Shown here one piece after another: positions 5,595-20,883 of a DNA stretch of 64,000 nucleotides. The DNA comes from Candidatus Helarchaeota archaeon (lineage in GTDB: Archaea > Asgardarchaeota > Lokiarchaeia > Helarchaeales > RDOG01), in assembly GCA_019058315.1 (NCBI GenBank), contig JAHPZH010000002.1, positions 480,001 to 544,000 on the forward strand. Direction: 5' to 3'. How positions within the stretch are numbered: the stretch's first letter is position 1; every line of letters begins with the position of its first letter. Below the pieces are notes generated by a model. That model was not told the origin of the DNA. It made no database searches and saw only the letters and a program-made list of their open reading frames with translations. The translations under genes were made by a program, and so were the position numbers.

Positions 5595-7067
5595 ATGGAA
5601 CGTCCTACATATGCGGATAGAGTAACGGACAGATATGTGCGCCGAAATTTTATAAATGGTATATTTACACTTTTTTCAAAAAAGTATTTTGCATATACTT
5701 GCATTTTAATAATATCTATCACTATTTCTCTAATTGCTAATATTATATTACCCACTCAAAATCCCTCAATGTTAAAAAACATCGTGATATTTGAAATTAG
5801 TACAATATTTGCATTTATAATTTCTGGGATTTTGGCATTTTGGATAAAAAATAATATTTCGAGATTAATTTCTATCTTAATTTTTAATATTATATTCTTT
5901 CTCCTTTTCCAAATTTATTTTTATAATTACTGGAAGGACGTCCTAAATCTATTTATTGTAATAAATATGGGAATGATAAGTATAAGTTTCTTGATTGTTA
6001 TTAGAAATTTTAACACTTCATGGATTGGAAGGCTTGTGGTTGGGGGAAAAGGGAAAAGAACTACTGCTTTCTACTCAATGATCCGTTTCACAGGATTAGG
6101 AATTGGCTTCTCTGCTTATCTTTTATATCTATTTCTAACTCCTAAACCATTTGAGACATCTAATTATAACTTTTTATTTCTAGCTATTTTTAATGGGGTA
6201 GCTAACCTATTATTGATGTTAATTGTCTATAAAAAATCATTTTATGATAAATATTTTTCACATGATTTTTTTGTCCAATCACTAACTTTTTTTTATGGTT
6301 TTTCTCTAATACCCATGATTCTAGTTAGTTTTTTAGAAAATGAGGGTATTTTTCCATTATTTAATTTTGCTTTAATTGTATTTACAATTTTATCCTTGAC
6401 TCAAGCTATCACATCAACCCGATCTGAATATGAAGAAAGATTGAAAAAAGTTGGATTAATAGACAGGATAAAAGATACAAGAATCAAAAAAAATTCGCGT
6501 GAGGATACCACAGCTAGAGATATTATAATTATAAATATTGAAAATGAAGATGAGACACAAATAGATATACCGAAGGCTATCAAAGCTGAAAAATCAAAGC
6601 AGAAAAAAGTAGTTTCAGCACAAGATGGAAAAATGATAATATTTTTAGGGTTTTGTTTATCATTTCATTTTTTAATTGTGCATTTCTTTATTAATCGAGA
6701 TATATTATTACCAAATCCATTTCTGGACTATCCTTTAGTAAATTTGCCATTTAATTGGCAAGACCTTAACACAATCATATCTATCATAGCTTTTGGAATT
6801 ATTATTGTAAATATTCTTCTATATTTTGGGTCTAATAAGCTTAAAGAATGGTATGCAAATAATATTCCAACACAAGCGGCTTTCTGGGAATTCTTGACTT
6901 TAATTGATCGTGAAGAGCGCATGCAATTCCTCACCCAATCTGCGGATATAATACGTGAAACGCTCATCACTGGAATTATGGACTTTATTGATAGAGCAAG
7001 AGATGATATTGAATCTACGGTGTGGGAAGGAATAAATTTTGTACGTCGATTTTTTGGAATAGGCTGA
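5595..7067 (+). CDS. Multi-pass membrane protein, hypothetical
   Basis: 490-aa ORF with about 10 hydrophobic segments. Confidence 0.7.
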   Translation: MERPTYADRVTDRYVRRNFINGIFTLFSKKYFAYTCILIISITISLIANIILPTQNPSMLKNIVIFEISTIFAFIISGILAFWIKNNISRLISILIFNIIFFLLFQIYFYNYWKDVLNLFIVINMGMISISFLIVIRNFNTSWIGRLVVGGKGKRTTAFYSMIRFTGLGIGFSAYLLYLFLTPKPFETSNYNFLFLAIFNGVANLLLMLIVYKKSFYDKYFSHDFFVQSLTFFYGFSLIPMILVSFLENEGIFPLFNFALIVFTILSLTQAITSTRSEYEERLKKVGLIDRIKDTRIKKNSREDTTARDIIIINIENEDETQIDIPKAIKAEKSKQKKVVSAQDGKMIIFLGFCLSFHFLIVHFFINRDILLPNPFLDYPLVNLPFNWQDLNTIISIIAFGIIIVNILLYFGSNKLKEWYANNIPTQAAFWEFLTLIDREERMQFLTQSADIIRETLITGIMDFIDRARDDIESTVWEGINFVRRFFGIG

Positions 7068-7080
7068 AATTAAAAAAAAA

Positions 7081-8355
7081 TTATTCTAGGTCTTCATTTT
7101 TTTTCTTTATCATATGAGCTAACTTTGCTTGTAGACCATATAACTCCATAAACCCTGCACTTGCCTTTTCATTGAATTTTGAAATTTTTTCATAAGTTGC
7201 GAGATTATAATCATAGAGTGCCCAATCAGATTTTCTCCCTACAATTTGTGCAGTTCCTTTATACAACTTAAGTCGAACTTCACCGTTTACTCGTTCATTT
7301 ACGTTATTTATAAATACATCGAGATCTTCTTTAAGTGGGTCAACCCAAAGTGCAGAATATACTAGATTAGCCCATTTTTCATCCACCAGAGATTTAAATG
7401 CAAATTCTTGTGTTGTACATACAGATTTTTCTAAATCTTTATGAGCACTAATTAGAAGAACTGCAGCAGGATTCTCATAAATTTCACGAGATTTAATACC
7501 AACTATACGATCTTCTAAATGATCTAAGCGCCCAATACTGTTTTTTCCACCGATGTCATTCAATTTTTGAATTAATTTTATACTGTCCATATGTTCACCA
7601 TTAATTGCCACAGGAATACCTTTTTGAAATTCGATAGTTATATATTCAACTTTATCTGGTGCATTTTTTGGATTGACTGTCCATTCAAAAGCATCTTCAT
7701 TTGGCTCCATTTCGGGATATTCCAAATCTGAACATTCAATACTGCGTCCCCATAGATTTTCATCAATAGAATATTTAGATTGGCTCGGTATAGGGATGGA
7801 ATGTTTTTTTGCATATTCAACTTCATCTTCTCTGTTGAATCCCCATTCGACAACAGGTTGAATAATCTTTATGTCAGGATTAATAGTATATGCGGTGACA
7901 GTGATCCTTACTTGATCATTCCCTTTACCTGTACATCCATGAGCTATCGCAGCAGCTCCTTCCTTTTTGGCGATTTTTATAGCCCACTTTGCTAATAATG
8001 GCCGGGATAATGCGGAATGTAAAGGATAAGTTCCCTCATATAATGCATTAGCTTTAAGCGCTGGAAAAACATAATTATCAATAAATTCTTGCTTGGCATC
8101 TATAGTAAAGTGCTTTTTCACACCTAATTTTTTAGCTTTCTCTTCAATCTTTTTGAAATCCTTTCCCCTCTGACCAATATCAAGAGTTAATGAGATCAAT
8201 GAACATTCATATTTCTCTTGAATCCATTTTAACATGACAGATGTATCTAACCCTCCACTATAGAGGAGAACTACTGTTTTTCCTTTTAATTCTTCTTTTT
8301 CTGGTTGAAAATTTGCTTTGAATAATTTGACCACCTTCAAAAAATTATAAAACAA
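7081..8355 (-). CDS. argG: Argininosuccinate synthase
   Basis: YSGGLDTS, AHGCTGKGNDQVR, YSIDENLWGRSIE, GIKSREIYE motifs; exact start uncertain. Confidence 0.97.
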   Translation of the reverse strand: MFYNFLKVVKLFKANFQPEKEELKGKTVVLLYSGGLDTSVMLKWIQEKYECSLISLTLDIGQRGKDFKKIEEKAKKLGVKKHFTIDAKQEFIDNYVFPALKANALYEGTYPLHSALSRPLLAKWAIKIAKKEGAAAIAHGCTGKGNDQVRITVTAYTINPDIKIIQPVVEWGFNREDEVEYAKKHSIPIPSQSKYSIDENLWGRSIECSDLEYPEMEPNEDAFEWTVNPKNAPDKVEYITIEFQKGIPVAINGEHMDSIKLIQKLNDIGGKNSIGRLDHLEDRIVGIKSREIYENPAAVLLISAHKDLEKSVCTTQEFAFKSLVDEKWANLVYSALWVDPLKEDLDVFINNVNERVNGEVRLKLYKGTAQIVGRKSDWALYDYNLATYEKISKFNEKASAGFMELYGLQAKLAHMIKKKNEDLE

Positions 8356-17737: not shown

Positions 17738-18949
17738 TTATTCCACTGAATCTAACAGTGCCAATAGGTTATTTCTAATCATATCGAGTTTTTCACGACA
17801 AGATGCTTCATTCTCAAACCAATTTATTAATGCATTATCAGAATCGAAATCATCTTGAGAAAATGTATAACTGAAAACGGAGTATAGGACGTCAATTTCT
17901 GAAGCCAAATAACCGATTTTTTCTAAAAAAGTTTGGTATTTTGAATGAAGAACTTTGTGTAATACTTCTCTCTTAATTTTTTTATTCTTCAGACCAAGAG
18001 ATTTTTTAATAAAAAGCCAAAATTCATCGATTGTATCTGAAATCTTTTCTAATTTTTTGATATAAAAAAATGTAAATTCTTCAAATTTTTTATTTGCTTG
18101 TTTTGGTGAAATGCTTTCAATTTCAAATTCTAGATGTTCTTCAATCCCTTCAAGTTCTTTCGTTTTAAGTTGATCTAAAATGGATGATTCATCTATTAAT
18201 TCTAAATCCGATTTATCTCCAACTTCTAATTCAGGTTCTTTAGTAGTAGGTTTTTCCACCAATATTTTCGGGGTTTCATCTCTTTCAAATTCAATTTGAT
18301 TTTTTAAATAATCAAATATAGTTAGGATAAACTGCAGATTCTCTGTTCTATCAATTCCAAATTCAGGGTGATCAATAAAAATATTAAAACCTCCTATCCC
18401 AAACACCCTATTATTTGGAGAAAAAACTGCTATTGGAGTGTTAGGTGGACTAGATTTCGGATTAGATTTTGCAATTACATTACAGGATTTATCAAGTATA
18501 TTAATAGAGCATCCAGAATAAATAATATATTTAAAATTTTCAGAAAAATGAATTGTTTCAAATTTCGAAATCTTAACTACAGCTGAAAGTCCCATATTAT
18601 CCTTTTCATCTTCTACTTGGTCATTATTAAATTCAAATTCAAATCTTCTCCCAATTTCACTAAGATTTGTATTATAGAAGAGATCTCCACCATTTCCACT
18701 AATTAATACTAACCCTTTTCCTCTTTCAACAAATTTTTCTAATGCCATTATTTCCGAATAGGAATAAGCTGTAGTTGGACAACCTAAAATAACTAGATCT
18801 TCTTCCGAAATTTTTTCTAAAGTAATTGGCGGCTGGATTAATCTAAAAATAACTCCACCTAAACGATTTAGAACTACTTGGAAACCTTCTGAATTTAAAT
18901 AATCCAAATTATTATTGTGGCTTTCATCAAGAACTATTTTAAAACTCAT
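17738..18949 (-). CDS. GIFT (GldG/IFT52-like) domain protein with acidic linker and helical C-terminus
   Basis: DLVILGCPTTAYSYSEIMALEKFVERG...GGD...TNL...FNND.V...YSGCSI pattern. Confidence 0.6.
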   Translation of the reverse strand: MSFKIVLDESHNNNLDYLNSEGFQVVLNRLGGVIFRLIQPPITLEKISEEDLVILGCPTTAYSYSEIMALEKFVERGKGLVLISGNGGDLFYNTNLSEIGRRFEFEFNNDQVEDEKDNMGLSAVVKISKFETIHFSENFKYIIYSGCSINILDKSCNVIAKSNPKSSPPNTPIAVFSPNNRVFGIGGFNIFIDHPEFGIDRTENLQFILTIFDYLKNQIEFERDETPKILVEKPTTKEPELEVGDKSDLELIDESSILDQLKTKELEGIEEHLEFEIESISPKQANKKFEEFTFFYIKKLEKISDTIDEFWLFIKKSLGLKNKKIKREVLHKVLHSKYQTFLEKIGYLASEIDVLYSVFSYTFSQDDFDSDNALINWFENEASCREKLDMIRNNLLALLDSVE

Positions 18950-19056
18950 GTTATTCTTTCATCTATTAATCAAATTTTTATATAATTCTATTTACCAAAA
19001 TTACAATAGTTAATGTAATATTTTATTTAAAATGTAAAAATTTTGGAGGTTATTTA

Positions 19057-19659
19057 TTGTTTAGAATTCCTGATGGAACTGAAATTAGAGCTCTAAGAAT
19101 AAAGGCAAGATTAACACAGACTGAATTAGCCAAAAAAGCAGGTGTAAGTCAATCACTTATCGCTAGAAAATAAAAGAAAAAAATTATTCTTTTATCTAGA
19201 ATTGAAACTGGAAGTGTTGATGCTCGTCTATCTACAATAAAAAAAATTTTAACAGCAATAGAAATGACTCTAATAGAGGATGAGGTCGTGGCAATTAGTT
19301 ATTCTACAAAAAATGTAACGCTCATTCGTGGAGATAAAACCGTTAATGAAGCTGCAAAAATTATGTCTGATAAGGGGATTTCTCAAATGCCAGTAATTAA
19401 TGAACAAGATAAAACTATAGGTTCGATAAAAGAAAAAACTATCATTAATAAACTTCTCCAAAATGGTCAAGAAATCTTAAATAATAAAATAGAATCAATA
19501 ATGGAGCCAAAAATACCAGAAATGCCGATAACTACAACCATCGAAGAAGCAAAGAAGATGTTATTACAACATGATGCGATTTTACTCACAAATGAAGAAG
19601 GTATCAAAGGAATTTTAACAAAAATCGATATAATCAAAGCTTATAGTAAAAAAGTTTAA
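19057..19659 (+). CDS. XRE-HTH + CBS-pair transcriptional regulator (COG3620-like), interrupted by a 33-nt intron candidate; exons 19057-19168 and 19202-19659, 189 aa when joined
   Basis: SD GGAGGT at 19045, TTG 19057. Joined product reads MFRIPDGTEIRALRIKARLTQTELAKKAGVSQSLIAR-IETGSVDARLSTIKKIL followed by the CBS pair. The ORF track shows only the CBS half. Confidence 0.88.
19169..19201 (+). other. Putative BHB-type mRNA intron (33 nt)
   Basis: Central helix CTAG/CTAG (19163-66/19196-99), 3-nt bulges AAA and AAT, 9-bp inner stem, in-frame TAA at 19171-73. Confidence 0.82.
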
Positions 19660-20549: not shown

Positions 20550-20571
20550 ATAAATAAAGAAATTGATAGAA

Positions 20572-20883
20572 ATGTCTAATGAAATAGAAGTCAAATATAA
20601 AATCTTAAGTGAACATCTTATCTGGGTAGATGAAACACTAATAGATGAGTTAATTAGTTTTTTAGAAGAAAAATTAGGTTCTAATGTTGTAATATCCCGA
20701 GATAAAAATTTTGTTTTAATAGGTTTATCGAAAGATCATGATCTTTCTAAAAGAACTTTAAAAGTATATATTAAAAGGTTCTTACATAAATATGAATTAC
20801 TTGATAGGTTAAGAGTAATATCTGGTGACGAAGAAAGTTATATAATTCATAAACGAAGAGGTATCGAAGTTACACGCTTTTAA
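20572..20883 (+). CDS. rpl22e: Ribosomal protein eL22 homologue
   Basis: FLEEKL...LSKRTLKVYIKRFLHKYELLDRLRVIS...ESY parallels the eL22 pattern FLQERI...[27 protein letters not shown]...ESY. Confidence 0.8.
   Translation: MSNEIEVKYKILSEHLIWVDETLIDELISFLEEKLGSNVVISRDKNFVLIGLSKDHDLSKRTLKVYIKRFLHKYELLDRLRVISGDEESYIIHKRRGIEVTRF

Follow-up and report, generated by a model that had tools for sequence, protein, structure and literature searches.

The window analyzed here is the whole of a 64,000-nucleotide stretch from Candidatus Helarchaeota archaeon (GenBank assembly GCA_019058315.1, contig JAHPZH010000002.1), and corresponds to positions 480001-544000 of contig C5 in a 5.79-Mb assembly of 12 contigs and approximately 30% GC. 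On its forward strand lies a gene for a regulator that joins an N-terminal helix-turn-helix (HTH) domain of the XRE type to a pair of CBS domains, and the coding sequence of this gene is broken within the HTH by 33 nucleotides. These nucleotides very probably constitute a bulge-helix-bulge (BHB), or tRNA-type, intron.

Read straight through, exon 1 runs into an in-frame TAA (19171-73) that closes an open reading frame (ORF) of 38 amino acids. Pfam analysis of this unspliced reading yields an HTH_3 match (4.1e-08) that covers 28 of the 55 profile positions and ends precisely at the break; two CBS domains come after it (2.2e-19, in two stretches). Exon 1 accounts for HTH_3 positions 1-28. Removal of 19169-19201 gives a 189-amino-acid protein with the junction SQSLIAR/IETGSVDARLST. 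HTH_3 followed by two CBS domains within approximately 190 amino acids is the architecture of XRE-HTH plus CBS-pair regulators (COG3620-like), and it recurs in more than 50 full-length homologues. No NCBIfam model scored above its own cutoff for the regulator protein, and nearly all of its PDB matches are generic CBS-domain proteins. The coordinates of the features are collected in Table 1.

Table 1. Features of the regulator gene and its putative intron (window coordinates), and putative inserts in other protein genes of the same assembly (contig coordinates)
Feature	Position	Strand	Description
HTH + two-CBS regulator gene	19057-19659	+	Start TTG, stop TAA 19657-59; read from sequence
TATA-like box	18977-18984	+	TTTATATA, 5' of regulator gene; read from sequence
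Shine-Dalgarno-like motif	19045-19049	+	GGAGG, 7 nt 5' of TTG start; read from sequence
Exon 1	19057-19168	+	TTG start, 37 codons plus base 1 of Ile codon
Exon 2	19202-19659	+	Remainder of Ile codon, remainder of HTH (IETGSVDARLSTIKKIL), two CBS domains, stop TAA 19657-59
Putative intron	19169-19201	+	33 nt, in-frame TAA 19171-73
Extended exon-exon helix, 5' strand	19149-19158	+	TCAA-t-CACTT, partner 19212-19220
Extended exon-exon helix, 3' strand	19212-19220	+	AAGTG-TTGA
Outer helix h, 5' strand	19160-19162	+	TCG, partner 19203-19205, one G.U
Outer helix h, 3' strand	19203-19205	+	TGA
Central 4-bp helix H, 5' strand	19163-19166	+	CTAG, within codons GCT AGA
Central helix H, 3' strand	19196-19199	+	CTAG, intronic
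5' bulge	19167-19169	+	AAA; predicted EndA cut between 19168 and 19169
3' bulge	19200-19202	+	AAT; predicted EndA cut between 19201 and 19202
Inner hairpin h'	19170-19195	+	9-bp stem ATAAAAGAA 19170-78 / TTCTTTTAT 19187-95, 8-nt loop 19179-86
EF-2 insert	C6:81229-81259	-	31 nt, at DTPGH/VD; GTP_EFTU positions 79/82 across junction
HDAC insert	C10:146806-146837	+	32 nt; Hist_deacetyl positions 151/154 across junction
Rrp41 insert	C10:138945-138976	-	32 nt; RNase_PH positions 59/64 across junction
RNase Z-like protein insert	C6:64108-64136	+	Likely strict BHB insert
PAC2 insert	C1:81769-81794	+	Likely strict BHB insert

The insert and its flanks can be drawn as a canonical hBHBh' motif, with two 3-nt bulges on opposite strands and exactly 4 bp between them. 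The archaeal splicing endonuclease (EndA) cuts past the second base of each bulge; applied to the window, this rule predicts the spliced junction codons GCT AGA ATT GAA (A-R-I-E). A sequence-only reading of this DNA had proposed the same structure, and on re-reading the sequence we found all of its helix, bulge, and stem coordinates and sequences to be correct, along with its statement that excision by the bulge rule leaves an intact HTH-CBS protein. The other BHB candidates within the window are weak. A direct repeat, CTAGAA (19163-68 and 19196-201), stands at both ends of the insert and leaves its boundary ambiguous within six bases at the DNA level; it results from the palindromic central helix lying beside A-rich bulges. 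The insert occurs once in the genome, with low-complexity look-alikes only, and a repeated or mobile element was rejected on this basis. Among 1,000,000 shuffles of the 33-mer, 301 had a minimal BHB in the frame-restoring register and none had the 9-bp inner stem; random 33-mers of genome composition had such a stem in 5 of 1,000,000. The probability of a chance origin of such a BHB is below 1e-5 and is negligible.

A search of 5.8 billion proteins for relatives of the regulator found close relatives in two forms: full-length proteins of 187-192 amino acids, and CBS-only ORFs of 131-143 amino acids. The contigs behind the CBS-only matches mostly carry a 38-amino-acid HTH ORF directly upstream. 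The insert-bearing set consists of the window, L035 (from a Helarchaeota metagenome-assembled genome at NCBI), L036 and L037 (JGI), L038 (Logan; source run SRR29366204), and L039 (ENA). L037 is identical to L036 over the gene, and the remaining four orthologues encode proteins with 68-88% identity to that of the window. In L035 (2831-3432; GCA_013375355.1, JABXJV010000023.1) the intron has been missed and the gene is annotated as two proteins, a 38-amino-acid "helix-turn-helix domain-containing protein" (P0061) and a 143-amino-acid "CBS domain-containing protein" (P0006). Two pattern scans of species-representative genomes for more insert-bearing orthologues gave no match.

All five distinct copies are interrupted at the same codon, by inserts of 33 nt (window), 32 nt (L035), 31 nt (L038), and 30 nt (L036 and L039). 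Each insert has a TAA at the equivalent place, two codons past the 5' splice site, and those of 32 and 31 nt also shift the frame unless removed. In silico, the canonical cut rule restores the frame and the sequence A-R-I-E-(T/I)-G in every copy. The predicted spliced junction 18-mers are ATCGCTAGAATTGAAACT (window), ATTGCTAGAATCGAAACT (L035), ATCGCTAGAATCGAAATA (L036), ATCGCTAGAATAGAAACC (L038), and ATTGCTAGAATCGAGACT (L039), and digestion of the predicted spliced protein would release the diagnostic junction peptide SLIARIETGSVDAR.

Pairing was compared by counting pairs in structural register with a script; the MAFFT alignment (A1) misplaces the stem gaps. Pairing of the central helix holds in every one of the five copies, the only wobble being a U.G in L036. 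Across the insert-bearing copies h' is 9-10 bp long and h is 3 bp, the latter length being realized in four of the five orthologues, and the loops range from 3 to 8 nt without sequence conservation. Within h', three copies have A-T at position 5, against one with G-C and one with G.U; at position 9 three copies have A-T and two have G-C; and position 7 is either G-C or G.U. In the outer helix, covariation involves the synonymous third bases of both flanking Ile codons, and one position of the extended helix is AT in the window and GC in L035, the other orthologues being mismatched there. This covariation suggests that the BHB structure is maintained by selection. The alignment of orthologues that the sequence-only reading had recommended thus turned out in favor of its proposal: the insert is present in four further assemblies and absent in three relatives, and there are compensatory changes in the stem.

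Nei-Gojobori ratios of nonsynonymous to synonymous substitution rates (dN/dS) for the whole gene are 0.05-0.17 among the insert-bearing copies, with dS ranging from 0.58 to saturation. The corresponding ratios of proportions of differences (pN/pS) are 0.11-0.29 for exon 1, 0.06-0.22 for codons 38-59 (past the intron and before any possible internal start), and 0.16-0.33 for the CBS part. Purifying selection on both sides of the insert indicates that both are translated as protein in the insert-bearing lineages and makes a CBS-only remnant very unlikely. Between the window and L035, pS is 0.19 in exon 1, 0.77 in codons 38-59, and 0.40 in the rest; the low value in exon 1 may reflect an extra constraint on the RNA, for example pairing with exon 2, the sample being small.

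Several observations count against a BHB intron. The outer helix is only 3 bp long, and in L038 a GxA mismatch lies beside the bulge; L039 has AxC as its first h' pair; and the counts of covarying pairs are small, coming from only five insert-bearing sequences, all of them related. The minimum free energy (MFE) structure favors a register one base off, with a 5-bp central helix, and the canonical BHB model is approximately 2.3 kcal/mol less stable than the MFE structure. Searches of protein and contig collections turned up neither a spliced junction nor a spliced protein for any insert-bearing copy. Nor is a protein identical to the spliced product on record, and a pattern scan of metagenomes returned distant uninterrupted homologues only. 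Folding of the whole region is modestly better than that of shuffles (z = -2.5). Given the MFE preference for the 5-bp register, thermodynamics alone would not choose the canonical form; the comparative data do, and the frame is restored by the canonical 4-bp register only.

If the insert is a BHB intron, the pre-mRNA would fold with the exon 1 CTAG (part of GCT AGA) paired to the intron's final four helix bases, leaving two 3-nt bulges four base pairs apart. The host endonuclease, probably an alpha-beta heterotetramer, would cut past the second base of each bulge, and RtcB would join the exons and probably circularize the 33-mer. Only the spliced mRNA would supply an intact recognition helix (SLIAR/IETG) and the 189-amino-acid protein, translation of unspliced mRNA stopping after 38 codons, and selection would keep the BHB because its loss would kill the gene. 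Cleavage and ligation in vivo are what we infer, and splicing is most likely constitutive.

L035, L036, and L038 match the gene order downstream of the window regulator; in these and in the insert-less L040, the regulator is followed by an uncharacterized protein of approximately 250 amino acids, ribosomal L22e, a protein of approximately 376 amino acids, and DUF1848. A divergent IFT52-GIFT gene upstream is shared with L035 and L038. Upstream of the regulator, the block around the TATA-like box, AAATTTTTATATAATTC, shows no difference between the window and L035, and the box is a candidate promoter element. GGAGG or GGAGA stands at the place equivalent to the Shine-Dalgarno-like motif in L035, L038, L039, and L041, and the orthologues start at the equivalent codon with ATG or TTG. 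In the window the divergent neighbor (17738-18949, minus strand) encodes an IFT52 GIFT domain (2.5e-10), a eukaryote-like signature, and a ribosomal L22e candidate lies at approximately 20563-20883 on the plus strand.

Three close relatives, L040, L041, and P0003 (source run SRR29850978), lack the insert precisely. In a maximum-likelihood tree the eight sequences form one clade (support 92/95) against insert-less outgroups; support within the clade is moderate. Insert-bearing sequences occur in all three sublineages, and the insert-less ones are nested in two: L041 joins the window and L035 (98/98), and L040 and P0003 fall together, adjoining L036 and L039 (84-93). In the simplest history, the insert would have been gained once and precisely lost at least twice. 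L040 and P0003 are genomic DNA, as indicated by an 18.5-kb contig for L040 and by the divergent upstream gene on the contig for P0003. The contig of L041 (1-915; ENA ERZ27275860, k141_1523058) starts 45 nt before the start codon, and its 5' end lies at a distance of 3 nt from the transcription start expected from the TATA box that the window and L035 share; L041 could be a spliced transcript, that is, a cDNA-derived contig, rather than an intron-less allele.

Farther out, approximately 75 distant metagenomic homologues with the SQSLIAR motif are all uninterrupted at ARIE. The two nearest species-representative genomes (approximately 40% identity) read SQSLIARIEAGTVDPR unbroken; orthologues there read SQSLIARIEAGTVD. 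In-frame stops in the distant homologues G017, G029, G032, and G005 were examined as possible introns and rejected, being either terminal stops that had been read through or, in G032, a nonsense codon. The G032 gene (L132:301-843; G032:C12:21836-22378) has one in-frame TAA in the first CBS domain with no extra bases, which is either an ordinary nonsense codon or an error of sequencing and not an intron. Another homologue, L076 (Ga0164318_10174734), has in-frame stops in its HTH (LTQS*LAK ... ARIEK*K) on the minus strand near base 52; it may be a pseudogene, or the stop may be a sense codon in its source organism.

The genome encodes both kinds of splicing enzyme. PF01974 (tRNA intron endonuclease) matches two ORFs (bit scores 103 and 78), the EndA paralogues, which lie at C12:5149-5703 and C1:331411-332016. 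The 184-amino-acid paralogue has its best matches to the tRNA-splicing endonuclease chains 3p1z_B and 3ajv_B, and the 201-amino-acid paralogue has no His in the corresponding stretch; by inspection only, we read them as putative catalytic and structural subunits, respectively. The EndA of Asgard archaea has been reported as an alpha-beta heterotetramer with an L1 insert linked to a broad substrate range (PMC5829648), and the presence of two paralogues fits that type. RtcB is encoded as well (PF01139, one match, 582 bits). ARAGORN found 27 tRNA genes in 5.8 Mb, 12 of them intron-bearing, which suggests that numerous tRNA genes are too interrupted for detection. Many of the genes found are in one cluster on one contig, at approximately 627.6-631.8 kb.

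The regulator does not appear to be alone. We scanned the genome for strict BHBs whose removal joins two open frames ("ORF rescue"), as the sequence-only reading had proposed. The scan as a whole was statistically uninformative, with 7262 matches under the correct cut rule and 6874-7178 when the 3' cut was moved by 1-2 nt. Matches at gene boundaries drown out the signal, which prevents introns from being counted in this way, and the top matches were checked one by one. These checks did bear out the proposal to the extent of finding inserts in EF-2, HDAC, and Rrp41, across whose junctions the Pfam positions are contiguous; with those in the RNase Z-like protein and PAC2, the five strict BHB inserts span 26-32 nt (Table 1). 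EF-2 is unreadable unless its insert is removed, and the organism must consequently splice BHB introns from mRNA. One further match, C5:382681-382708, was rejected as a false positive at the boundary between McrG and ferredoxin genes. The McrG gene there (G000:C5:381788-382678; L130:89-979) encodes a complete methyl-coenzyme M reductase gamma subunit (PF02240, 4e-91) and is followed by a ferredoxin-like gene; it fits alkane metabolism of the Helarchaeota type.

The sequence-only reading had gone further and suggested that splicing gates expression of the regulator, in the manner of HAC1/XBP1. In HAC1/XBP1, an mRNA is cut without the spliceosome at two structured sites and joined by a tRNA ligase (RtcB in animals), and the functional factor is produced only when splicing has occurred; the nuclease is the stress-activated Ire1, which recognizes twin stem-loops. 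The outline is similar here, with a structured transcription-factor mRNA and a tRNA ligase, and a switch through which the tRNA-splicing machinery controls the regulator would refine, not replace, the intron interpretation. It would be in keeping with the inability of unspliced mRNA to yield a DNA-binding protein, the retention of the TAA in all five introns, the ligand-sensing CBS domains of the host gene product, and the presence of RtcB. Nothing, however, indicates conditionality, which defines HAC1/XBP1, and the structure here is a BHB rather than twin stem-loops; PF06479 (Ire1-type KEN domain) has no match in the genome and none in the control genomes, which left that search without a positive control. 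Precise loss of the intron in close relatives where both the gene and its synteny are retained (L040 and P0003) argues that it is dispensable, and the conserved TAA lies within a conserved stem, where pairing and shared descent can explain it. Similar introns in the housekeeping genes EF-2 and Rrp41 argue for a general, probably constitutive, RNA processing and not for a regulator-specific switch. We therefore find the gating claim unsupported and regulated splicing unlikely. Particular forms of it, in which BHB folding competes with a ribosome reaching the TAA approximately 110 nt past the start, or EndA, RtcB, or archease is limiting, seem to us similarly doubtful.

A chance insertion capable of forming a hairpin might instead have inactivated the gene, as every insert-bearing copy has an in-frame stop or a frameshift and family member G032 carries its nonsense codon. 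Both exons are nevertheless free of other defects in five diverged lineages, contrary to what the sequence-only reading had named as the mark of a pseudogene, and the low dN/dS and the low pN/pS of exon 1 alone, together with a BHB kept through compensatory changes and very improbable by chance, make a pseudogene highly unlikely. We give just as little credence to a split gene, in which the 38-amino-acid HTH fragment and a CBS protein of 131-143 amino acids would be separate products. Gene callers and NCBI do annotate two proteins (P0061 and P0006), but the break lies inside the recognition helix, and codons 38-59, which have no preceding start codon of their own, are the most constrained of all. 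The internal ATG (19264) is not preceded by a Shine-Dalgarno sequence, and the internal Met is not conserved, being Leu in L041.

Translational bypass resembling the hop of T4 gene 60 would leave the mRNA intact, with take-off at AGA 19165-67 and landing at AGA 19198-200. The window seems suited to it, in that the two codons match, the stop is one codon past take-off, a hairpin fills the gap, and the product would equal A-R-I-E. In the orthologues, by contrast, a hop would put F in L035 and L in L038 where I is invariant, and in L036 the landing site (CTGG) offers no matching codon; hopping works only in the window and L039, whereas the BHB rule gives I in all five copies, and we regard bypass as very improbable indeed. 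An assembly or sequencing artefact can be practically dismissed, as five assemblies made independently, with NCBI, JGI, Logan, and ENA as their sources, carry differing insert sequences at the site, a result opposite to the one that the sequence-only reading had said would undo its proposal.

The closest precedent for a BHB intron in this regulator gene is found in crenarchaeal cbf5 pre-mRNA (Watanabe et al. 2002, cited in PMC7714728; Yokobori et al. 2009, PMC2738675). There too a short BHB intron lies within coding sequence and the frame is restored only by tRNA-splicing endonuclease and ligase; the cbf5 intron is described as ancestral and then lost secondarily and precisely in some lineages (PMC2738675), a history like that proposed here. 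The two differ in host gene (a pseudouridine synthase versus an XRE-HTH plus CBS regulator) and in lineage (Desulfurococcales and Sulfolobales versus a Helarchaeota-like Asgard archaeon). Unlike that of cbf5, the regulator intron has companions in other protein genes of its genome, and cbf5 splicing has been shown experimentally whereas that of the regulator is predicted. Besides an intron in the 5' untranslated region of HVO_1309, cbf5 is the only mRNA BHB intron reported (Schwarz et al. 2020, PMC7714728). In HVO_1309 of Haloferax volcanii the archaeal splicing endonuclease likewise acts on an mRNA, and the fragment released is a circle (PMC7714728), but that intron lies in the untranslated leader and leaves the protein uninterrupted, whereas the regulator intron breaks a codon in the DNA-binding helix. 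BHB introns of archaeal tRNA and rRNA, including those of Asgard tRNA genes, share the hBHBh' motif and presumably the enzymes, the difference being that the substrate here is an mRNA. Asgard tRNA genes have been reported to be heavily interrupted (bioRxiv 10.64898/2026.10.13.758758); in that report "protein-coding" is used only for synteny-marker neighbors, and "mRNA" and "cbf5" do not occur. Our literature search found no paper on Asgard archaea, BHBs, and mRNA that describes such introns, in agreement with the sequence-only reading, which knew of none in this gene family or in Asgard archaea. The regulator is a new gene family, in a new lineage, for coding-sequence BHB introns of the cbf5 type.

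With splicing predicted, the regulator would be the second archaeal gene family documented as needing tRNA-type splicing, and this in Asgard archaea. For a case argued from DNA comparison the evidence is unusually clean: five orthologous introns of four lengths follow one cut rule, the stems carry compensatory changes, selection acts on both exons, and insert-less relatives record gain and precise loss. If splicing were conditional after all, the tRNA-splicing machinery would set the level of a transcription factor with a CBS sensor, and the archaea most closely related to eukaryotes would have a prokaryotic analogue of HAC1/XBP1 control. Annotation reports such genes as two fragments, as in GCA_013375355.1, which implies that Asgard proteomes are systematically mis-called at such sites. 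Taken with the putative introns of EF-2, HDAC, and Rrp41, that of the regulator implies that splicing of mRNA by the tRNA machinery would be routine in this organism, and it bears on the tolerance of split genes in the lineage closest to eukaryotes.
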